From sequence record ON528737: a stretch of 64,000 bases of DNA; one strand, written 5' to 3'. The translations under genes and the position numbers were made by a program. Source of the DNA: Shigella phage ESh27. Within the stretch, counting starts at the first letter, position 1; each line of letters begins with the position of its first letter. Under the pieces are notes generated by a model. The model saw only the letters and a list, made by a program, of their open reading frames with translations. It was not told the origin of the DNA and did no database searches. Shown here piece after piece: positions 2,748 to 55,497 of the stretch.

Positions 2748-3920
2748 ATGTCTGATTTAAAATCTCGTCTGATTAAAGCTTCTACTTCTAAAATGACTGC
2801 AGACTTGACTAAGTCTAAGCTGTTTAATAATCGTGATGAAGTCCCTACTCGTATTCCGATGTTGAATATTGCACTAGGTGGTGCTCTGAATGCAGGATTG
2901 CAATCAGGCTTGACTATTTTTGCTGCACCTTCTAAACATTTTAAAACATTGTTTGGACTAACTATGGTTGCAGCGTATATGAAGAAATATAAAGATGCAA
3001 TCTGTTTGTTCTATGATTCGGAATTTGGTGCTTCGGAATCTTACTTCCGTTCGATGGGTGTTGATTTGGACCGCGTAGTTCATACACCAATTCAGTCTGT
3101 CGAACAACTTAAAGTCGATATGACTAATCAGCTTGATGCTATTGAACGCGGTGATAAAGTTATTATCTTTATCGATTCAATCGGTAATACTGCATCTAAG
3201 AAAGAAACCGAAGATGCATTGAACGAGAAAGTTGTAGGTGATATGTCTCGTGCTAAGGCACTTAAATCTCTGTTCCGCATTGTGACTCCTTATCTGACTA
3301 TTAAAGATATTCCGTGTGTTGCAATCAACCATACAGCAATGGAAATCGGCGGACTATATCCTAAAGAGATTATGGGTGGTGGTACAGGTATTCTTTACTC
3401 TGCTAACACTGTATTCTTTATCTCTAAACGTCAGGTTAAAGAAGGTACAGAATTGACCGGTTATGACTTCACGTTGAAAGCAGAAAAATCTCGTACGGTT
3501 AAAGAGAAATCTACTTTCCCGATCACGGTTAATTTTGATGGCGGTATTGACCCATTCAGCGGCTTGTTAGAAATGGCAACTGAAATTGGTTTTGTGGTTA
3601 AACCTAAAGCCGGTTGGTATGCTCGTGAATTCCTTGACGAAGAAACAGGTGAAATGATTCGTGAAGAGAAATCATGGCGTGCTAAAGCTACTGATTGCGT
3701 AGAATTCTGGGGACCGTTGTTTAAACACAAACCTTTCCGAGATGCAATTGAAACTAAATATAAACTAGGTGCTATCTCTTCTATTAAAGAAGTTGATGAC
3801 GCTGTTAACGATCTTATTAATTGCAAAGCAACAACTAAAGTTCCGGTTAAAACTTCTGATGCTCCATCTGCAGCAGATATAGAAAACGACCTTGACGAAA
3901 TGGAAGATTTCGATGAATAA
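2748..3920 (+). CDS. uvsX: UvsX RecA-like recombinase
   Basis: 390 aa; N-terminus MSDLKSRLIKASTSK and acidic C-tail; RecA core with P-loop-like APSKHFKT; matches T4 UvsX length. Confidence 0.95.
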   Translation: MSDLKSRLIKASTSKMTADLTKSKLFNNRDEVPTRIPMLNIALGGALNAGLQSGLTIFAAPSKHFKTLFGLTMVAAYMKKYKDAICLFYDSEFGASESYFRSMGVDLDRVVHTPIQSVEQLKVDMTNQLDAIERGDKVIIFIDSIGNTASKKETEDALNEKVVGDMSRAKALKSLFRIVTPYLTIKDIPCVAINHTAMEIGGLYPKEIMGGGTGILYSANTVFFISKRQVKEGTELTGYDFTLKAEKSRTVKEKSTFPITVNFDGGIDPFSGLLEMATEIGFVVKPKAGWYAREFLDEETGEMIREEKSWRAKATDCVEFWGPLFKHKPFRDAIETKYKLGAISSIKEVDDAVNDLINCKATTKVPVKTSDAPSAADIENDLDEMEDFDE

Positions 3921-5735: not shown

Positions 5736-5772
5736 GTTTACATCTTCCTCTAGTCATGATATGATGTACTTA
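5736..5772 (+). promoter_or_regulatory. early (sigma70-type) promoter
   Basis: -35 GTTTAC 5736-5741, 18 bp spacer, -10 TATGAT 5760-5765; directly after gene 41 terminator. Confidence 0.5.
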
Positions 5773-5794
5773 CACCAACCAAGAGGAAAACATT

Positions 5795-6169: not shown

Positions 6170-6205
6170 GTTTACTTCTCCGGTAGTTGTGTTATTATAG
6201 ACCTA
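6170..6205 (+). promoter_or_regulatory. early promoter
   Basis: -35 GTTTAC 6170-6175, 17 bp, -10 TATTAT 6193-6198; followed by AGACCTATCAA. Confidence 0.5.
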
Positions 6206-6224
6206 TCAACTACTGGAGAACAAA

Positions 6225-13345: not shown

Positions 13346-13552
13346 AAACGGAGGTCTATCATGACATGTCAATCTGAACAAGAGTACATGGTCTCGGGTA
13401 TCTCTAAATTTGAGATTGTGGAAATTGAAGACTTAGAATATATCCCTTTATCTCGATTATACAAAATCATTCATTTGAAAATGTTGAATTTTTAGTGTAC
13501 AAACTCTTCCGATGATGATACTATACCTTTATCAACCATAGGAGAAACCTAA

Positions 13553-18913: not shown

Positions 18914-18965
18914 GTTTACTTCTCCTCTGGTTTTGATATTATAACCATATCAACCAGAGGAGAAT
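18914..18965 (+). promoter_or_regulatory. early promoter inside 12-bp perfect inverted repeat (PeSL-like)
   Basis: -35 GTTTAC 18914-18919, -10 TATTAT 18937-18942; arms TCTCCTCTGGTT 18921-18932 and AACCAGAGGAGA 18952-18963. Confidence 0.5.
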
Positions 18966-18968
18966 AAT

Positions 18969-19217
18969 ATGTTAGTTTACCGCGTAGAACGTAGTTTTTG
19001 TACTCAACGTGAATCATTACCAGGAATTGCTATTGAAGACGGTAAAGCCGTCAGAATTTGGGAAACCTCTTGGAATAAAGAACCTCGTTCGCCATACGGT
19101 TGGTCGGGCACCGACAACTCTGAAGAAACATGGGAGTTCCTTGATAAACATGGAATACTCTCAGGTAATTTCTACCATCACGGCGACAACTATAATGTCC
19201 CTAATCGTCGAAGATAA
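18969..19217 (+). CDS. hypothetical protein
   Basis: 82 aa; SD GAGGAG. Confidence 0.4.
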   Translation: MLVYRVERSFCTQRESLPGIAIEDGKAVRIWETSWNKEPRSPYGWSGTDNSEETWEFLDKHGILSGNFYHHGDNYNVPNRRR

Positions 19218-20805: not shown

Positions 20806-20850
20806 CTTTAGATTTCGGATGATAGAATACCTTCATAACGAGGAGACAAC

Positions 20851-22668
20851 ATGATTAAAAATGAAATTAAGGTACTGTCAGATGTAGAACATATTAAGAA
20901 ACGTAGTGGTATGTATATTGGTTCTTCTGCTAAAGAAGCACATGAACGTTTTTTGTTTGGTAAATATCAACAAGTTGAATATGTTCCTGGTCTGGTTAAA
21001 TTAATCGATGAGATTATTGACAACTCGGTTGATGAAGCTATTCGTACATCATTTAAGTTTGCAAATAAAATTGATGTGCAAATTAAAAATAATCAAGTTT
21101 CGGTGGAAGATAACGGACGTGGTATTCCTCAAGGTTTAGTTACCGACCAAACGGGTGAACAAATTCCTGGGCCTGTTGCAGCCTGGACTATTCCAAAAGC
21201 CGGTGGTAACTTTGGTGATGACTCTGAACGTAAGACTGGTGGTATGAACGGCGTCGGGAGTAGTTTAACTAATATCTTCTCTACGTTGTTTACAGGCATA
21301 ACGTCAGATGGCGAAAATGAAATCACTGTTAACTGTTCAAACGGGATGGAAAACAAATCATGGTCTTCTAAGAAATCTAAAGGTAAAGGCACTAAAGTAA
21401 TCTTCACTCCTGATTTCACTTCATTTGAAGAGCATAATTTATCTCAAATTTATTTAGATATTACTTTAGACCGACTTCAAACATTGGCAGTCGTTTATCC
21501 TGATATCAAGTTCACATTTAACGGTAAAAAGGTTGATGGTAATTTTAAACGATTTGCTAAACAATTTGGCGAAGATAATATCATTCAAGAAAATGATAAA
21601 GTCTCTATAGCATTCACAACATCACCAGATGGCTTCCGTCATTTAACTTATGTGAATAACATCCATACTAAAAATGGTGGACATCATGTTGAATGTGTAA
21701 TGGACGATATCTGCGAACATCTTTTGCCAGGTATTAAAAAGAAATATAAGGGTATTGAAGTCACTAAAGCTCGTGTTAAAGAATGCCTCACAATGTTGAT
21801 GTTTATTAGAGACATGAGTAACATGCGTTTTGATTCTCAGACTAAAGAACGTTTAACGTCAACATATGGTGATATTCGTAATCATATCCAATTAGATGCT
21901 AAGAAAATTGCTCAGGCACTTCTTAAAAACGAAGCCTTGATTATGCCTATTGTTGAAGCAGCATTAGCTCGTAAATTGGCAGCAGAAAAGGCTGCAGAAA
22001 CTAAAGCAGCTAAAAAGGCCACTAAAGCTAAGGTTCATAAGCATATTAAAGCTAACCAATGCGGTAAAGATGCAGATACGACATTGTTTTTAACAGAAGG
22101 TGATTCGGCAATTGGATATCTCATTGATGTTCGTGACCGTGAACTACATGGCGGATTCCCATTACGTGGTAAGGTGATGAATAGCTGGGGTATGTCATAT
22201 GCTGATATGATGAAGAACAAAGAGCTCTTTGATATCTGTGCTATCACAGGTCTTATTCTTGGTGAAAAAGCAGAGAATACGAACTATCGTAATATTGCAA
22301 TTATGACCGATGCCGATCATGACGGTCTTGGAAGTATCTATCCGGCTTTGCTTGCTTTCTTTAGTAATTGGCCTGAATTGTTTGAACAAGGACGTATTCG
22401 CTTTGTTAAAACGCCTGTAATTATTGCACAAATTGGCAAAACACAAAAATGGTTTTATACTGTAGCTGAGTATGAAGAAGCTAAAGATACACTGCCTAAG
22501 CATAGTATTCGATACATCAAGGGATTAGGCTCCCTTGAAAAGTCAGAATATCGTGAAATGATTCAGAACCCTGTGTACGACGTAGTTAAACTTCCTGAAA
22601 ATTGGAAAGAACTCTTTGAAATGTTGATGGGTGATGATTCAGAACTTCGTAAAGAATGGATGTCCTAA
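20851..22668 (+). CDS. 39: DNA topoisomerase II large subunit (gp39 with gp60 fused)
   Basis: 605 aa continuous; GHKL ATPase motif EDNGRGIP, TOPRIM LTEGDSA; covers both 39 and 60 of T4 in one frame. Confidence 0.9.
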   Translation: MIKNEIKVLSDVEHIKKRSGMYIGSSAKEAHERFLFGKYQQVEYVPGLVKLIDEIIDNSVDEAIRTSFKFANKIDVQIKNNQVSVEDNGRGIPQGLVTDQTGEQIPGPVAAWTIPKAGGNFGDDSERKTGGMNGVGSSLTNIFSTLFTGITSDGENEITVNCSNGMENKSWSSKKSKGKGTKVIFTPDFTSFEEHNLSQIYLDITLDRLQTLAVVYPDIKFTFNGKKVDGNFKRFAKQFGEDNIIQENDKVSIAFTTSPDGFRHLTYVNNIHTKNGGHHVECVMDDICEHLLPGIKKKYKGIEVTKARVKECLTMLMFIRDMSNMRFDSQTKERLTSTYGDIRNHIQLDAKKIAQALLKNEALIMPIVEAALARKLAAEKAAETKAAKKATKAKVHKHIKANQCGKDADTTLFLTEGDSAIGYLIDVRDRELHGGFPLRGKVMNSWGMSYADMMKNKELFDICAITGLILGEKAENTNYRNIAIMTDADHDGLGSIYPALLAFFSNWPELFEQGRIRFVKTPVIIAQIGKTQKWFYTVAEYEEAKDTLPKHSIRYIKGLGSLEKSEYREMIQNPVYDVVKLPENWKELFEMLMGDDSELRKEWMS

Positions 22669-22690
22669 GCTCCTTCGGGAGCTTCATTTT
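22668..22690 (+). terminator. terminator-like hairpin after gene 39
   Basis: AGCTCC-TTCG-GGAGCT hairpin followed by CATTTTAATTTT. Confidence 0.5.
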
Positions 22691-22710
22691 AATTTTAATA
22701 AGGCTTAATT

Positions 22711-23811
22711 ATGAAAGTTATGTTTATCCCATCTCGCGCAGTCCCGTTTAACCCAGAACGTGTACAAGGTGGTCTTGAAGCAGTACATTTAAATGTGTTG
22801 AAATATCTTGTGTCCATCGGTGCTGATATTGATTATATCGGCTTTGATAATGACACGTTTGGTGACTGGAAAGTTACACACCATCCTGTTGGTCATCTGA
22901 CTAAATTCAGTCTAGGTATGAGTTATACTATGGCTCGTAAGATTGTTGAACTAGCCGGCATTAATGAGTACGATTTCGTTGTTACAATGGAACCGACCAA
23001 ACTAACCGTTCAGGCAATTAAAGACGCAGGTCTCTCTAAAGTTCATAAGAATTTTATGGCAACACCATTTGAACCGGTATCTCGTGGCATTGTTCAAATT
23101 TGGGACCAGACTATTCAAATTCATAAGAATGGTGGTAAGAGTTATGCTCCTACTAAAGCCTTCCGTGAATTTGAACGCAAATATTGTTATATGACTTCAG
23201 GACTGACTGACAAAATTGATTATGATTATTGGCGAGCAAATCCGTTGTTTGAAGCCGAAGATTATCCGGTTATTTGTTTGACTGAAAAACCGGAAGTTCT
23301 CCCAGCAACTGATTTGATTATTAGTGCTCAACGTTATGACACTAAGATGCGTCGTACTGATGTTGCTCTTGAAGCGATTAAAGCATTAGGCGAAAATGGT
23401 ATTGGTTATTGTCCAAGCAAATGGGCACCACCAGCTAAGTATCCTGTTATTATTGATGCTCCACACAGTGAAATCATGGAACGTCTTAAAACAGCTAAAG
23501 CACTTATTAATACGTGTCCTGACACGGGTACGGTAGAGAATAGTTCTATTGAAGCCATCTCTAAAGGTGTCCCTGTAATTCAGTTAGTTTTTAAGGATTA
23601 TCCGCATGCGACATTCGAATATGACCCAGATACTGTGCGTGTAGAAATTGATTCCTCTACTCCTAAGAAAGAAGTAGTTGCGCTTTACACAAAAGCTGTA
23701 TTAGAATTCACTGACACGTACGAAGCTCGAGTTAAACGTGCTGAAGCAGTATGGAAGAAGTATAACCGAGATGCAGTTGTTGCAATGTGGGATAAAATCT
23801 TCACAGCGTAA
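22711..23811 (+). CDS. putative GT-B fold glycosyltransferase (candidate DNA sugar transferase)
   Basis: 366 aa; C-terminal TGTVENSSIEAISKGVPVI resembles the GT1/GT4 E-x7-E donor-binding region; sits between 39 and rIIA. Confidence 0.55.
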   Translation: MKVMFIPSRAVPFNPERVQGGLEAVHLNVLKYLVSIGADIDYIGFDNDTFGDWKVTHHPVGHLTKFSLGMSYTMARKIVELAGINEYDFVVTMEPTKLTVQAIKDAGLSKVHKNFMATPFEPVSRGIVQIWDQTIQIHKNGGKSYAPTKAFREFERKYCYMTSGLTDKIDYDYWRANPLFEAEDYPVICLTEKPEVLPATDLIISAQRYDTKMRRTDVALEAIKALGENGIGYCPSKWAPPAKYPVIIDAPHSEIMERLKTAKALINTCPDTGTVENSSIEAISKGVPVIQLVFKDYPHATFEYDPDTVRVEIDSSTPKKEVVALYTKAVLEFTDTYEARVKRAEAVWKKYNRDAVVAMWDKIFTA

Positions 23812-23903
23812 ATCCTGAATCGCCTGAGGCACTATTACACATAAGATGATAGATTATATGGTCTTTAGTAATAGTGCCCTAGGAATCTACTGAAGAGAAT
23901 ATT

Positions 23904-24104
23904 ATGAGAACATATAACGTGGACTTGGAACTTTTTGATAAAGCAGTGCTCCGGGAATTCCGGCTTATCCAAAGATTTTTTGATATCGAGTCAGCAGAGT
24001 TCTTTAAAGAACGCTTTAAAGAAATTCGATATAAAATACAAACCGATACAGCTACTAAAGAAGAACTTCTTGAAGTAGCAGAAATTTTTAAACGTAACTT
24101 GTGA
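23904..24104 (+). CDS. hypothetical protein
   Basis: 66 aa; overlapped by a longer antisense ORF, plus-strand copy preferred by operon direction. Confidence 0.35.
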   Translation: MRTYNVDLELFDKAVLREFRLIQRFFDIESAEFFKERFKEIRYKIQTDTATKEELLEVAEIFKRNL

Positions 24105-24116
24105 TGAGAGAAAAAT

Positions 24117-26330
24117 ATGATTATTGAAACGGCTAAAGAAACGATTATTGGTTCAGGCGGTAAGAGCACAGCATTCACTATTCAAGGCAATAGCAAAGTT
24201 TATAAGATTTTGTCTAATGACCTTTATACAAACAAAGAATTGGCTTGTGTACGTGAATTAATTACAAACTGTATCGATGGACAAATTCTTAATGGTTGCA
24301 CTGATAAGTTTATTGTTCAGGCTCCAGGTCGTTTAGACCCACGCTTTGTAGTTCGAGACTTTGGTCCTGGTATGAGCGATTTCACTATTCGAGGTAATGA
24401 CGAAGAGCCAGGAATCTATAACTCATATTTTGCTTCAACTAAAACATCGAGCAACGATTTCATTGGTGGATTCGGGCTCGGCTCTAAAGCTCCGCTAGCA
24501 TATACCGATACGTTTAACCTTACGTCTTATCACAACGGTGAAGTTCGTGGTTACGTAATCTACCAAGATGACACAGGTCCACAAATTAAGCCGACCTTTG
24601 TAGATAAAATGGGTCCTGATGACCGTACGGGTGTAGAAGTAGTTGTACCGGTTAACCCGGAAGATTTTGAAAAATTCGCATCCGAAATTGCATATGTTAT
24701 GCGTCCTCTAGGTGATATTGCAGAAGTTCGTGGTGTTAAAGATATTAAATACTTCCCAGAATTTGATGATGTATATTTGGCCAAGGAAGCTCCATGGGGT
24801 GAACGTGGTAACATCATGGCTGTTTACGGTGGTATTGTATATCCAATCGGAAGTGTTATTAAAGAACAAACATGGATGATGACGCGATGCACTACAGCTT
24901 ATATTAAATTCCCTATGGGTGAACTAGATGTAGCCCCGTCTCGTGAAGCATTGTCATTTGATAAACGTACAGTAGCAAATATCCATAAACGTGTTGCAGA
25001 AATCGATGCTAAATTGTTCGCTGAAGATTCTAAGAAATGGATTGATTGTAAATACCCACGTCATGTGTTCCGTGAAATTGATTCTCTTGGTTATACCGCT
25101 CGTAAATACATGGAAAAGGCCGGGTCTAATATTGAATCACTGAAATACTCTAAAGAACAACTAACTTATTCTGAGTTGTACAAACGTTTTAAAATGGGAC
25201 CTGAGTGGTGTAATCTTGGTGTCGTATACGATATCGTTGAATCCCCTCGTCTTCGTCGTATTCGTGAAAGTGGTAGCTCATCATCAACCATTTCAATTAA
25301 CAGCCTGATTGGCATTAACATTAAAAACGTTGAAATTGTTATTGACGACGTTAAGGGACGCGTTCCATTAATGCGAGCTCTTAATTCAATTGAAATGTCT
25401 AAAGACGAGGTTAAATTATCCGGTAAAGTTCCACGCGGTTTTGGTAAAAGCGTACTATTCGTTGACCCTACAGACGAAGATGCAATGAAACTTCTGGAAC
25501 GCCTTAAAGTTATCTTTGATGGCGATAGCATTAACATGTACAAGACTTCAGAGCTTTTACAAATCGTTAAGCCATGGATTGAAGTCAGGAAACGGACTAA
25601 TGAGCCTCGTCCTAAATCCCCAAGTGCTCATCGATTCTTTAAGAATGAAAACGATGTTTGGGTATCAGAAGACCTCTTTATTCCGGCAAGTGAAGCAGAT
25701 GAAATCCAAGGTTATGCTATAGTTCGTAATCGTTCTAATGCTGAATGTCTTGACGCAGATAAAGGTTGGTTGAACTATGACTCCAATTTCTTGACCCGTA
25801 TTGCTGATTTGTCAGGTATTAAAGAGTTCACTGTAGTTCGTCCACAGATTGCTAAGAAAGTTCGTAAACTTGGTGAAGTAGAATGTTTGTTTGAAAAATC
25901 AATTAATGACTATATTATGCTAATCGATAAAGTAGATTATGATGAGTATGTATCACCAAGTCGTAGAGCACAGCCTTATTTGAATCATATTACTCGTAAC
26001 GAAGAGCTTAATTTCCTTAGTAAGTATTTTAGCTCTAAGAACAAAGAAATCAGTAAAGACTTTGCAAAACTCTCAACAGTAAATAATCGTTGGGGATGGA
26101 ATCGATTCGCAGGTGCTACTAATACAGACCTGAACAGGAAGTTAGAATTGTGTGCTAAAATTTTCGATAAGCTTAAAGATAATGCTTACGATAATGATGA
26201 TAAAATGGTTATTGAATTCGAAACCAATTATCATATTGTGTCAGAATACATGGGACGACGTGGTACTCTTTCTAAAGAACAAGTCGCTCAAATCGTTAAA
26301 TTCATGAAGGCCGTGGAAGCGGCCAAATAA
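24117..26330 (+). CDS. rIIA: rIIA lysis-inhibition / membrane protector protein
   Basis: 737 aa; N-terminal GHKL-like region (ELITNCIDG, GGFGLGSK); size and position next to rIIB. Confidence 0.8.
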   Translation: MIIETAKETIIGSGGKSTAFTIQGNSKVYKILSNDLYTNKELACVRELITNCIDGQILNGCTDKFIVQAPGRLDPRFVVRDFGPGMSDFTIRGNDEEPGIYNSYFASTKTSSNDFIGGFGLGSKAPLAYTDTFNLTSYHNGEVRGYVIYQDDTGPQIKPTFVDKMGPDDRTGVEVVVPVNPEDFEKFASEIAYVMRPLGDIAEVRGVKDIKYFPEFDDVYLAKEAPWGERGNIMAVYGGIVYPIGSVIKEQTWMMTRCTTAYIKFPMGELDVAPSREALSFDKRTVANIHKRVAEIDAKLFAEDSKKWIDCKYPRHVFREIDSLGYTARKYMEKAGSNIESLKYSKEQLTYSELYKRFKMGPEWCNLGVVYDIVESPRLRRIRESGSSSSTISINSLIGINIKNVEIVIDDVKGRVPLMRALNSIEMSKDEVKLSGKVPRGFGKSVLFVDPTDEDAMKLLERLKVIFDGDSINMYKTSELLQIVKPWIEVRKRTNEPRPKSPSAHRFFKNENDVWVSEDLFIPASEADEIQGYAIVRNRSNAECLDADKGWLNYDSNFLTRIADLSGIKEFTVVRPQIAKKVRKLGEVECLFEKSINDYIMLIDKVDYDEYVSPSRRAQPYLNHITRNEELNFLSKYFSSKNKEISKDFAKLSTVNNRWGWNRFAGATNTDLNRKLELCAKIFDKLKDNAYDNDDKMVIEFETNYHIVSEYMGRRGTLSKEQVAQIVKFMKAVEAAK

Positions 26331-26339
26331 GGAAACATT

Positions 26340-27275
26340 ATGTACAATATCAAATGCTTGTCCCAAGAAGAACAGTTAGAAGCTTACGGCCTGGTTGAAT
26401 CAGGCAAATGGACTCGTAAAGAAATTGCCGATTACTTCGACATTTCAACAGATACTCTTCGTAAGATTGTTAAGAATTTTAAAGCTGAAGAGAAAGCAGC
26501 TGAATTTGAAGACGAAGAACAGATCCCAGAAAATGATGAACCTATTATCGGCGGACATCGTCCAGAAATCGTATGGAACGCGTCATCTAAATTTATTTCA
26601 ATCATTGAAGGACGCGTAGCATACAATGCGACCCCATCAAGTCATGCAAATTTTGAAGAAATTAAAACTAATCTGGTCGCAGGAAACCTTAGTAAAGCTG
26701 TTGAACTTATTAACGTCAAGAAAGCTATTACTAAGTTTGTTGACGGTAATGTTACTATTGAAGGTGGTAGTTTATTTTATCAAGGTATAGAAATTCGTTC
26801 AGGTCTGGTTAATCGTATTATTGATTCCATGGAAAAAGGCGAAGACTTTAAATTCTATCTGCCGTTCCTTGAAAACCTGTTAGAAAACCCGAGCGAAAAA
26901 GCTGTACAACGTTTATTCGACTTCTTGGTTGCAAATGATATTGAAATCACTGAAGATGGGCATTTCTACGCGTGGAAAGTAGTTCGTAAAGATTATTTAG
27001 ATTGCTATAGCGGTACATTTGATAACTCCCCAGGTAAAGTTGTTTCAATGCCTCGTACTCGTGTTAACGATGATGATACACAAACCTGCTCCCGTGGTCT
27101 ACATGTTTGCGCTAAATCATATATTCGTTACTTTGGTTCTAGCTCAGATAAAGTTGTTAAGGTTAAAGTTCATCCGCGCGATGTTGTATCTATCCCGGTT
27201 GACTACGGTGATGCTAAGATGCGTACTTGTCGTTATGAAGTAATTTCAGACGTTACTGAATTATTTGCAGAATAA
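26340..27275 (+). CDS. rIIB: rIIB protein
   Basis: 311 aa; N-terminus MYNIKCL and block GGSLFYQ...LENLLENPS...HVCAKSY; terminator follows. Confidence 0.85.
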   Translation: MYNIKCLSQEEQLEAYGLVESGKWTRKEIADYFDISTDTLRKIVKNFKAEEKAAEFEDEEQIPENDEPIIGGHRPEIVWNASSKFISIIEGRVAYNATPSSHANFEEIKTNLVAGNLSKAVELINVKKAITKFVDGNVTIEGGSLFYQGIEIRSGLVNRIIDSMEKGEDFKFYLPFLENLLENPSEKAVQRLFDFLVANDIEITEDGHFYAWKVVRKDYLDCYSGTFDNSPGKVVSMPRTRVNDDDTQTCSRGLHVCAKSYIRYFGSSSDKVVKVKVHPRDVVSIPVDYGDAKMRTCRYEVISDVTELFAE

Positions 27276-53907: not shown

Positions 53908-54318
53908 ATGAAAGATATTGCCGCCGAATATTCCTTTATTAAATATATAGAATTGGAGCTATTAGAAGATGCAACAATTAAAACCATTGATGCCCCTAAT
54001 AAGAAAAATGTCATATACGCTATTGCTATAGATGACGAACTTGTGTATATTGGTAAAACCAAGAATTTAAAGAAACGCATTAACTATTATCGAACAGCCA
54101 TAAATCGAAAAGACCAGACTTCAGATTCAAGAAAATCACTTATGATTTTGGATGCCTTAATGCAAGGCAAAAAGGTTGAATTCTGGGCCCGCCAATGTTT
54201 TGACCTTTCAGTCACTAACGAACTCGGTTCAATGACCATTGCAACAATGGACCTTGAAGAACCGCTTTTTATCAAAAAGTTCAACCCGCCTTGGAATATC
54301 CAACATAAGAAAAAGTAG
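53908..54318 (+). CDS. denA: endonuclease II (GIY-YIG)
   Basis: 136 aa; GIY-YIG-like VIYAIAIDDELVYIGKT; size and position after nrdB. Confidence 0.7.
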   Translation: MKDIAAEYSFIKYIELELLEDATIKTIDAPNKKNVIYAIAIDDELVYIGKTKNLKKRINYYRTAINRKDQTSDSRKSLMILDALMQGKKVEFWARQCFDLSVTNELGSMTIATMDLEEPLFIKKFNPPWNIQHKKK

Positions 54319-54355
54319 TTTACATACCACAAGGATTGTGGTACAATTTAAAAAA
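54318..54355 (+). promoter_or_regulatory. early promoter upstream of rnlA
   Basis: -35 GTTTAC 54318-54323, 18 bp, -10 TACAAT 54342-54347; spacer palindrome CCACAAGGATTGTGG. Confidence 0.45.
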
Positions 54356-54363
54356 CTAACTGA

Positions 54364-55497
<1,134 letters not shown>

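Follow-up and report, generated by a model that had tools for sequence, protein, structure and literature searches.

What is the inverted repeat that lies in the spacer between a glycosyltransferase gene and the rII genes of Shigella phage ESh27: a promoter element, the trace of a gene insertion, a structure that acts in messenger RNA, or a product of chance? The DNA analyzed here (the window) is a stretch of 64,000 nucleotides from sequence record ON528737. It belongs to an RB69-like T4-type phage of the genus Mosigvirus, and its best matches, Mizar and ATK47, are ~97.8% identical to it. The 92-nt spacer (23812-23903) is present in 154 phage records at an identity of at least 95.8% (96 to 99% for the region), and no feature is annotated in it in the four GenBank records that were inspected across the spacer (SA79RD, ATK47, RB69, and ESCO47). 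The genes and signals around it are as follows.

20851-22668, + strand: gene 39, unsplit, topoisomerase II large subunit
22667-22684, + strand: intrinsic terminator (hairpin and T-run) directly after gene 39, at the upstream border of the arabinosyltransferase gene
22711-23811, + strand: putative arabinosyltransferase gene, 366 codons, homolog of RB69 ORF003c/gp3 (RB69p003)
23904-24104, + strand: rIIA.1 (PF24210 T4_RIIA1, E = 6.7e-30), in the same gene order as in RB69
24117-26330, + strand: rIIA, after rIIA.1
26340-27275, + strand: rIIB, after rIIA

The upstream gene had been called a glycosyltransferase gene in a preliminary description of this DNA, and this was correct. Its 366-codon product shares 98.4% amino acid identity with RB69 ORF003c (gp3), which has been proposed to be a DNA arabinosyltransferase (PMC6024577) and is now listed under RB69p003 as putative beta-arabinosyltransferase 2 (PMC13326640); we refer to it as a putative DNA beta-arabinosyltransferase with a predicted GT-B fold. 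The protein had no Pfam match, and no homolog in the phage collection fell in the range of 60 to 95% identity; the other homologs in that collection were confined to Acinetobacter T4-type phages, at ~42%, where they are annotated as DNA glucosyltransferases. The same description placed the repeat between this gene and rIIA. It is indeed intergenic, but its direct downstream neighbor is rIIA.1, with rIIA following. The terminator after gene 39 is annotated in SA79RD and ATK47, and TransTerm finds a site at the equivalent position in RB69 (3649-3662).

The repeat itself is present letter for letter where it had been reported, with GGCACTATTAC at 23828-23838 and GTAATAGTGCC at 23868-23878 forming a perfect 11-bp match around a 29-nt loop that does hold the -10-like string TGATAGATTATATGG. 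The arms widen outward to 16 nt (23823-23838 and 23868-23883), of which 14 of 16 positions are complementary; the remaining two oppose A to C (23827/23879) and G to T (23826/23880). The spacer thus contains the following parts.

23823-23838, + strand: 5' arm, CCTGAGGCACTATTAC, pairing with 23868-23883 in the RNA fold and containing the perfect 11-mer 23828-23838
23839-23867, + strand: loop of 29 nt, comprising a 4x2 internal loop, an inner helix, and an apical loop, with the -10-like string TGATAGATT
23868-23883, + strand: 3' arm, GTAATAGTGCCCTAGG, containing the perfect 11-mer 23868-23878
23884-23903, + strand: leader and ribosome-binding region of rIIA.1, AATCTACTGAAGAGAATATT, single-stranded, 3' of the hairpin

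From the base inward, the computed fold of the full hairpin (23823-23883) consists of 4 bp, a 1x1 mismatch, 11 bp, an internal loop, 5 + 3 bp, and a 5-nt loop, which amounts to an imperfect structure of ~23 bp in two helices. The inner helix pairs 23843-47 with 23861-65 and 23849-51 with 23857-59 and closes an apical loop at 23852-56. The outer helix ends at 23883, leaving a gap of 9 nt to the Shine-Dalgarno-like GAAGAG (23892-97), and the AUG of rIIA.1 (23904) lies 20 nt past the stem. Both are unpaired in the minimum free energy and centroid folds, and the ribosome-binding site of rIIA.1 is therefore open, 9 to 20 nt downstream of the helix. The sequence upstream of the hairpin, aaatcctgaatcgcctgagg, is not A/T-rich, and the 3' flank, CCCTAGGAATCTACTG, has no U-tract. 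Two other roles for the sequence were considered and rejected. A 15-codon micro-ORF running from an AUG at 23846 to a UGA at 23893 (MIDYMVFSNSALGIY) has no Shine-Dalgarno sequence, and all of the polymorphisms within it but one alter an amino acid when its codons are read by eye. As for a replication origin, oriA of T4 is found near soc and not at the location of the hairpin.

Taken alone, the 11-bp repeat is within chance for a 64-kb window, because shuffled windows commonly hold such repeats. The window contains six perfect 11-mer inverted repeats with loops of 3 to 60 nt, dinucleotide shuffles contain 1.98 ± 1.83, and at least one such repeat was found in 77 of 100 dinucleotide-shuffled windows. 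The stem had been described as unusually long, which did not hold up either: longer stems, of 13 to 14 bp, occur at 18920 (18920-18964, a perfect 13-bp stem in a palindrome of the promoter type) and at 6176. The whole hairpin, by comparison, exceeds chance. For the 92-nt spacer, the folding energy is -28.5 kcal/mol (z = -4.24), a value that none of 200 shuffles equaled; for the 67-nt element, z was -6.39. Among the 28 intergenic spacers of at least 40 nt in positions 1 to 34,040 of the window, this one had the most negative folding z, and in the centroid fold of its 161-nt context (23800-23960) the hairpin was the sole structure retained. A covariance search against Rfam 15 returned chance-level matches only (E of 2 or more, 13 to 16 bits against gathering scores of 35 to 86), and no second copy of the arms or the spacer was found in the window, where the element is single-copy.

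The strand on which the structure would act can be addressed from the same folds. The + strand folds at -28.5 kcal/mol and the - strand at -23.8 kcal/mol, and the G.U pairs at 23826/23880 and 23847/23861, together with a variant found in ESCO47, allow pairing in + strand RNA only. Both the G.U pairs and the better + strand fold speak for a coding-strand RNA rather than for a cruciform in the DNA or an RNA of the - strand.

The element had been likened to promoter palindromes elsewhere in the window. The early promoters of the window consist of GTTTAC, a spacing of 17 to 18 nt, and TG.TAT.AT, followed by agacCTATCAa, and in many of them the -35/-10 spacer contains one arm of an inverted repeat whose second arm lies immediately past the -10. 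These other palindromes match the published PeSLs, the promoter-early stem-loop cassettes of T4-type phages (Arbiol et al. 2010, PMC2839356; Comeau et al. 2014, PMC4122927), to which the hairpin shows no sequence similarity in the window, and the first reading is corrected accordingly: the hairpin is not a full PeSL. The odd trait of the hairpin is its 29-nt loop, the true PeSLs of the window having loops of 13 to 20 nt.

A position-weight matrix was built from 14 early promoters of the window, and it recovers about ten further window promoters at 21 to 42 bits, recognizable promoters overall scoring 21 to 49 bits. Within 23790-23880, the best scores were -5.9 bits on the + strand and -13.4 bits on the - strand, so that the claim of a shared architecture fails: the palindromes in question carry GTTTAC-N17/18-TG.TAT.AT, and the hairpin scores no higher than -5.9. 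The upstream block of the matrix scored -3.2 at the best + strand site, compared with ~8 to 22 in recognizable promoters, and a GTTTAC -35, an AT-rich upstream element, and a downstream agacCTATCAa motif were all absent at the hairpin. The -10-like string in the loop is real, but a credible promoter it is not, given its low matrix score and the frequency of such motifs: TGnTAnnnT occurs 178 times on the + strand of the window, and matches equal in quality to the best loose promoter match, TATTAC-N18-TATGGT, occur ~5 times per kb per strand. A regular-expression search of 22000-24200 found no MotA box, (a/t)(a/t)(a/t)TGCTT(t/c)A, 11 to 13 bp upstream of a TAnnnT; the sequence 12 nt upstream of TAGATT is ACTATTA. 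The late-promoter motif TATAAATA was not found. A promoter on the - strand was also rejected; the loop holds a perfect TATAAT on that strand, one of 41 in the window, but it lacks a -35 and a TG, and its -10 block score is unremarkable.

An intrinsic terminator was rejected as well, since the hairpin has no U-tract, its stem is AT-rich, and its loop is far longer than 3 to 8 nt. It was not called by a terminator scan of the window, by TransTerm on RB69, or by the ARNold and WebGeSTer searches of the annotators. The predictions of Nolan et al. for RB69 comprise 58 early promoters, 32 middle promoters, and 31 terminators, and they place nothing in the RB69 equivalent of the spacer (2428-2519); closest to it are Pe:6863, the promoter Pm:5538 upstream of gene 39, and the terminator that follows gene 39. 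In T4, a canonical early promoter lies upstream of rIIA.1 at the position equivalent to that of the hairpin. It has no predicted counterpart in the RB69-type phages, which have therefore lost it. A middle-type promoter for rIIA, annotated in SA79RD, lies inside rIIA.1, and in RB69-type phages the transferase gene and rIIA.1 have no predicted promoter of their own; both would have to rely on transcription that reads through from upstream.

Variation among the Mosigvirus relatives was examined in an alignment of the spacer and ~600 nt of flanking coding sequence, which comprised the window and 16 relatives (17 sequences) and then the window and 21 relatives (22 sequences), the larger set omitting the most divergent phage. 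The relatives were picked partly for their divergence, and counts of variable sites are small. In the 17 sequences, 59 of 195 third codon positions (30%) and 16 of 392 first and second positions (4%) were variable, as were 4 of 46 paired positions of the hairpin (8.7%; Fisher p = 0.0025 versus third codon positions) and 5 of its 15 unpaired positions (33%; p = 0.033 for paired versus unpaired). The corresponding values for the 22 sequences were 42 of 189 third codon positions, 3 of 46 paired positions (p = 0.013), and 4 of 15 unpaired positions. In both sets, the rest of the spacer varied at 1 of 31 positions, the site being 23821, upstream of the hairpin. Third codon positions thus vary three to four times more than paired bases, and at the same rate as unpaired ones. 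Judged from these alignments, the stems and the rIIA.1 leader are constrained and the loop positions drift at about the rate of third codon positions.

The individual changes agree with this pattern for the most part. The inner helix was invariant among 18 sequences, and the variable loop sites (23840, 23852, and 23867) are all unpaired; at 23852, a G/A polymorphism turns TAGATT into TAAATT in about half of the relatives. Position 23827, an A in most phages, is replaced by a G in VIPECOMC06 and in a Logan contig, and this closes the mismatch. In AV109, a change of CT to TC at 23879-80 closes the A.C mismatch from the other arm and converts the G.U to a G-C pair, producing a perfect 16-bp stem of -35.3 kcal/mol. 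In ESCO47, a C-to-T change at 23877 turns a G-C pair into a G.U pair and an A-to-G change at 23867 adds an inner pair. A T-to-C change at 23875 in RB69 places an A.C mismatch in the 11-bp core, although the fold still reaches -24.6 kcal/mol, and a G-to-C change at 23883 in ST2, ECO111 5-P, and OCHD01 loses the basal pair. The A.C mismatch at 23827/23879 has therefore been closed by two independent changes on opposite arms, with both A-U and G-C variants seen at this pair, and two other changes break pairs. At a divergence of only ~2%, a covariation count does not separate the alignment from shuffles: 95% of cells pair, but 407 of 500 shuffles do as well as this. Further relatives were sought in IMG/VR (three loci) and in a metagenome scan (four), all of which were 98 to 99% identical, and an exact-protein look-up gave one contig.

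The suggestion that the hairpin marks a cassette junction beside an acquired gene was pursued by comparing the region between gene 39 and rIIA across relatives, as the preliminary description had proposed. The slot between gene 39 and rIIA.1 carries cargo that differs by genus.

T4: mobA, 60.1, and a split gene 60
Dhakavirus phage IME08: ~580 bp without annotation, in which our own reading finds two small ORFs with a canonical PeSL between them
Karam-, Gelderland-, Jiaoda-, Winkler-, and Kagamiyamavirus phages and phage 212: orfA (~50 codons, conserved) and orfB (~100 codons), the latter overlapping the start of rIIA.1
Klebsiella phage Roth16: orfA without orfB, then a terminator, an 18-bp hairpin of unrelated sequence, and a promoter of the MotA type

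Because the content of the slot varies between genera, the transferase gene has replaced other cargo in the Mosigvirus lineage, with the hairpin at its 3' border. The slot is variable, yet no observation connects the hairpin with the insertion event. A comparison of the borders of the transferase gene gave no common repeat or PeSL (local alignment reached 7 nt at best, no better than in shuffles), the 5' border is an ordinary terminator, and tblastn gave no signal of an orfA or orfB remnant in the spacer. The transferase gene and the hairpin accompany the Mosigvirus-type rIIA.1 in each of the 154 phage records that have it, so there is no empty site for comparison. A foreign origin by composition was rejected for the transferase gene, whose GC content (39.8%) and GC3 (28.1%) equal those of its neighbors. 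The preliminary interpretation is right in part, in that the stem-loop lies beside a lineage-specific gene in a variable slot. In Acinetobacter phage Acj61, two tandem homologs of the transferase lie in an arabinosylation cluster beside genes 40 and 41; the first copy is followed by a plain short hairpin, AUAGAGCC-uucg-GGCUCUAU, the second runs straight into gene 40, and neither is followed by a long hairpin like that of the Mosigvirus phages.

We propose, at roughly even confidence, that the hairpin is a promoter-less intercistronic mRNA stem-loop that acts on the + strand as an attenuator or exonuclease barrier. Gene 39, the transferase gene, rIIA.1, and rIIA are co-directional, and no recognizable promoter lies between the middle promoter upstream of gene 39 and the middle-type promoter within rIIA.1; going by the promoter and terminator predictions, the transferase message must therefore read through the spacer. 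In the read-through RNA, positions 23823-23883 are computed to fold into the long imperfect hairpin, which probably attenuates transcription, blocks 3'-to-5' exonucleases, or does both. The hairpin would then mark the 3' end of the transferase message and uncouple the level of the transferase from that of the rIIA.1-rIIA-rIIB message, and the translation start of rIIA.1 would be insulated with its ribosome-binding site left open. As to its origin, the element resembles one half, the stem-loop, of a PeSL-type cassette without a working promoter. The stem-loops of PeSLs are proposed attenuators, one of which lowered the expression of lacZ to roughly the extent that the rrnB T1 terminator does, and "degraded" PeSLs with the stem-loop intact and the proper promoter missing have been described (PMC2839356; PMC4122927). 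We found no Mosigvirus transcriptome in the literature, and the one Mosigvirus paper found used T4 data by synteny. A more specific version, in which the hairpin is a Mosigvirus-specific cis-regulatory RNA (a processing signal or protein operator that sets the ratio or timing of the transferase versus rIIA.1, rIIA, and rIIB) and arose when the transferase gene replaced orfA/orfB and the T4-type rIIA.1 early promoter was lost, seems to us quite unlikely.

It is possible, though unlikely, that the hairpin is a decayed PeSL or a chance palindrome with no present function, which persists through a young genus of ~98% identical phages. A perfect 11-bp repeat is expected about twice per shuffled window, the region is nearly uniform (96 to 99% identity) in the 154 records, shuffles commonly pair as well as the real alignment, and RB69 and three other phages tolerate broken pairs. 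Degraded PeSLs are documented (PMC4122927), and the loop sequence TGATAGATTAT resembles both the canonical extended -10 TGATATTAT and the -10 region of the gene 39 middle promoter. Against a relic stand the three- to fourfold lower variability of paired positions relative to third codon positions, alongside unpaired positions that vary at the third-codon rate, the changes at stem positions, most of which keep or gain pairing, and the most extreme folding z of 28 spacers. The same pattern, a conserved stem with a loop free to vary and a downstream single-stranded leader without variation, would also suit endonuclease processing, a close variant of the attenuator model, in which the ~23-bp helix would be cut by host RNase III or another double-strand-specific RNase, or would direct RNase E to the adjacent AU-rich single strand, splitting the transferase from the rII message. 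RNase III sites call for a helix of ~20 bp or more with permissive proximal and distal box sequences; the helix, with its internal loops, is of adequate length, and the early-region RNase III sites of T7 resemble it in geometry, with a 16-bp lower stem, an internal loop, and a 9-bp upper stem. Processing is nevertheless improbable in our estimation, as RNase III is mentioned 0 times in a review of posttranscriptional control in T4 (PMC3014915) and the hairpin has no Rfam match.

A weak sigma-70 promoter within the loop, either the extended -10 TGaTAGATT (23847-55) or TATTAC-N18-TATGGT (23833-62), would yield an RNA that lacks the 5' arm, following the design of T4 e, soc, 49, and I-TevI. The T4 early promoter at the same place upstream of rIIA.1, the lack of any other predicted promoter for the Mosigvirus rIIA.1, the invariant TG at 23847-48, and the -10 held in the loops of the other PeSLs of the window all speak for such a promoter, but we regard it as very unlikely. 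It scores -5.9 bits where recognizable promoters of the same genome score at least 21, loose matches as good as this one are common (~5 per kb per strand), and the -35 GTTTAC, AT-rich upstream element, and agacCTATCAa are missing; the -10 candidate moreover carries a common G/A polymorphism at a site evolving at the third-codon rate, and the Shine-Dalgarno sequence is not in the 3' arm, so that there would be nothing to unmask. The chances are slimmer still for a cassette junction or PeSL-type recombination substrate acting as DNA at the point of transferase insertion. The cargo of the slot does differ in each lineage examined, the Acinetobacter homologs are located elsewhere, inside an arabinosylation cluster, and PeSLs have been reported beside indels (PMC4122927, PMC2839356). 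The borders of the gene nonetheless share no repeat or PeSL beyond a 7-nt alignment, no relative has an empty site, GC and GC3 match the neighbors, no orfA/orfB remnant exists, the element is unique in the window, and the G.U-type pairs and strand asymmetry fit RNA. Cruciform extrusion is also unfavorable with a 29-nt spacer, which counts against a DNA junction. Finally, conserved arms with a freely varying spacer could represent a protein-binding site, whether a palindrome recognized as DNA or an RNA operator through which a repressor would act on the translation of rIIA.1 and rIIA. RNA operators do occur in T4-type phages, one of them being a hairpin that lies ~40 nt before the start codon of gene 43 (PMC3014915). 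This reading we consider highly improbable: a DNA operator would not typically have its half-sites 29 bp apart, substitutions in the arms are more apt to restore pairing than to keep the sequence, the window contains no other site like it, and there is no known ligand.

If the attenuator model is true, it would explain unequal expression of the transferase and the rII genes from one read-through message. The value of the observation lies mainly in annotation, in that the most structured spacer of the early region examined, with conservation specific to its stems, was previously unmarked; the current understanding of gene regulation in T4-type phages is unchallenged by it.

Among known systems, PeSLs are the closest in setting. 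Like them, the hairpin is a stable intergenic stem-loop that stands among early genes of one strand, beside a lineage-specific gene of a variable slot, and precedes the Shine-Dalgarno sequence and start codon of the gene downstream; attenuation of upstream transcription has been proposed for PeSLs, which include a "degraded (1/2)" class. It shares the stable stem-loop and the intergenic position beside a variable gene in a hyperplastic region that are expected of a PeSL, but not the sigma-70-like early promoter (-35 GTTTAC/TTTACW, N17(±1), -10 TAYWAT); it also has no A/T-rich upstream element or acceptable -10, its loop is 29 nt rather than 13 to 20, and it is single-copy in the window, belonging to no dispersed family of cassettes able to recombine and having no partner at the other border of the gene. 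The hairpins of T4 genes e, soc, 49, and I-TevI sequester the ribosome-binding site and contain an internal promoter (PMC3014915). The Mosigvirus element resembles them in being formed only on read-through transcripts, just 5' of a gene start, but the rIIA.1 Shine-Dalgarno sequence and AUG lie outside the helix and no internal promoter is detectable; the T4 sequestration mechanism is inapplicable because the hairpin does not cover the ribosome-binding site of rIIA.1. Several of the true PeSLs in the window appear to follow the sequestration design. With intrinsic terminators such as that at 22667-22684, the hairpin shares a stem-loop that closes a cistron on the transcribed strand, and it differs from them in its missing U-tract, AT-rich stem, and long loop.

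In the E. coli REP elements (malE-malF) and the RNase III sites of T7, a long imperfect intercistronic helix could set unequal message levels. By analogy, the hairpin may do the same, although it is single-copy and genus specific; we know of no sequence relationship between it and either REP elements or T7 RNase III sites. The "PmSL"-like element of Klebsiella phage Roth16 occupies the same genomic position, with an 18-bp stem that includes three G.U pairs and a 22-nt loop with an inner helix. Roth16 likewise lacks the orfB that overlaps the start of rIIA.1 in most genera and has a similar rIIA.1 leader, ACTGAgGAaAATATTATG, but its arm sequences are unrelated, and a middle promoter, TGCTTAA-N11-TATAAT, is plainly present there together with an upstream terminator, where the Mosigvirus element has neither. 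Set beside these systems, the element is a new, unannotated example of the familiar intercistronic stem-loop of phages.

The loop of the hairpin before rIIA.1 (an imperfect stem-loop at 23823-23883 on the plus strand) contains the 9-mer GATGATAGA, of which just two copies are found in the window. The copy at 23845 is the one in the loop, and that at 20818 lies in the -10 region of a MotA-type middle promoter (tttTGCTTTAgatttcgGATGATAGAAT) upstream of gene 39. The loop copy may be the vestige of a former promoter, or else its presence there may be due to chance.

A perfect 16-bp version of this hairpin is carried by phage AV109, whose transferase, encoded by a homolog of ORF003c (a putative DNA arabinosyltransferase gene), is the most diverged (95.1%). 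A homing-endonuclease gene (positions 1 to 358 of the AV109 comparison locus, L012) lies directly upstream of the transferase gene in this phage, whereas in the other Mosigvirus phages the end of gene 39 occupies that site. Phage ST2 (L009; GenBank OM982647) is filed as Guernseyvirinae/Kagunavirus; its locus and its 171-kb genome size are both of the Mosigvirus type, and the record has probably been assigned the wrong taxonomy.

In most of the genera examined other than Mosigvirus and that of T4 (loci L016 and L024 to L029), the interval from gene 39 to rIIA.1 retains a conserved pair of small genes: orfA, of ~50 amino acids with a W[IV]TL..G.YGY motif, and orfB, of ~82 to 110 amino acids, the end of which overlaps the start of rIIA.1. 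Neither is present in the window. Klebsiella phage Roth16 has a hairpin of its own at this position, preceded by a terminator:

L017, about 1355-1494: long hairpin upstream of rIIA.1, 18 bp including 3 G.U pairs, with a 22-nt loop that holds an inner helix

It overlaps a middle-type promoter (TGCTTAA-N11-TATAAT) and is unrelated to the hairpin of the window. The rIIA.1 leaders are similar (ACTGAGGAAAATATTATG in Roth16 versus ACTGAAGAGAATATTATG in the window).

Promoter-like elements were also located within rIIA.1 and elsewhere in the window:

24000-24023: perfect 10-bp palindrome TTCTTTAAAG-aacg-CTTTAAAGAA, inside rIIA.1
24013-24037: GCTT-N13-TATAAA, inside rIIA.1 and overlapped by the palindrome
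54318-54347: early promoter GTTTACataCCACAaggatTGTGGTACAAT
5736-5794, 6170-6224, 13496-13552 and 18914-18970: PeSL (promoter-early stem-loop) early promoters with an anti-Shine-Dalgarno-like arm

The GCTT-N13-TATAAA element was annotated in the relative SA79RD as a T4-type middle promoter for rIIA, and it is missing from Nolan's list of RB69 middle promoters. The early promoter at 54318 is nearly identical to the one upstream of rIIA.1 in T4 (GTTTACtttaCCACAaggaTGTGGTATAAT) and, in this phage, stands ahead of a different gene, at 54373.

In several PeSLs of the window, the 5' stem arm lies within the -35/-10 spacer and is anti-Shine-Dalgarno-like (TTCCTC, TTCTCC, or CTCTTCC), its pairing partner in the 3' arm being the Shine-Dalgarno sequence of the downstream gene. 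On read-through RNA the ribosome-binding site would be hidden, while RNA starting at the PeSL's own promoter, inside the loop, would leave it exposed. The logic known from T4 e, soc, 49, and I-TevI apparently recurs at several early promoters of the window.
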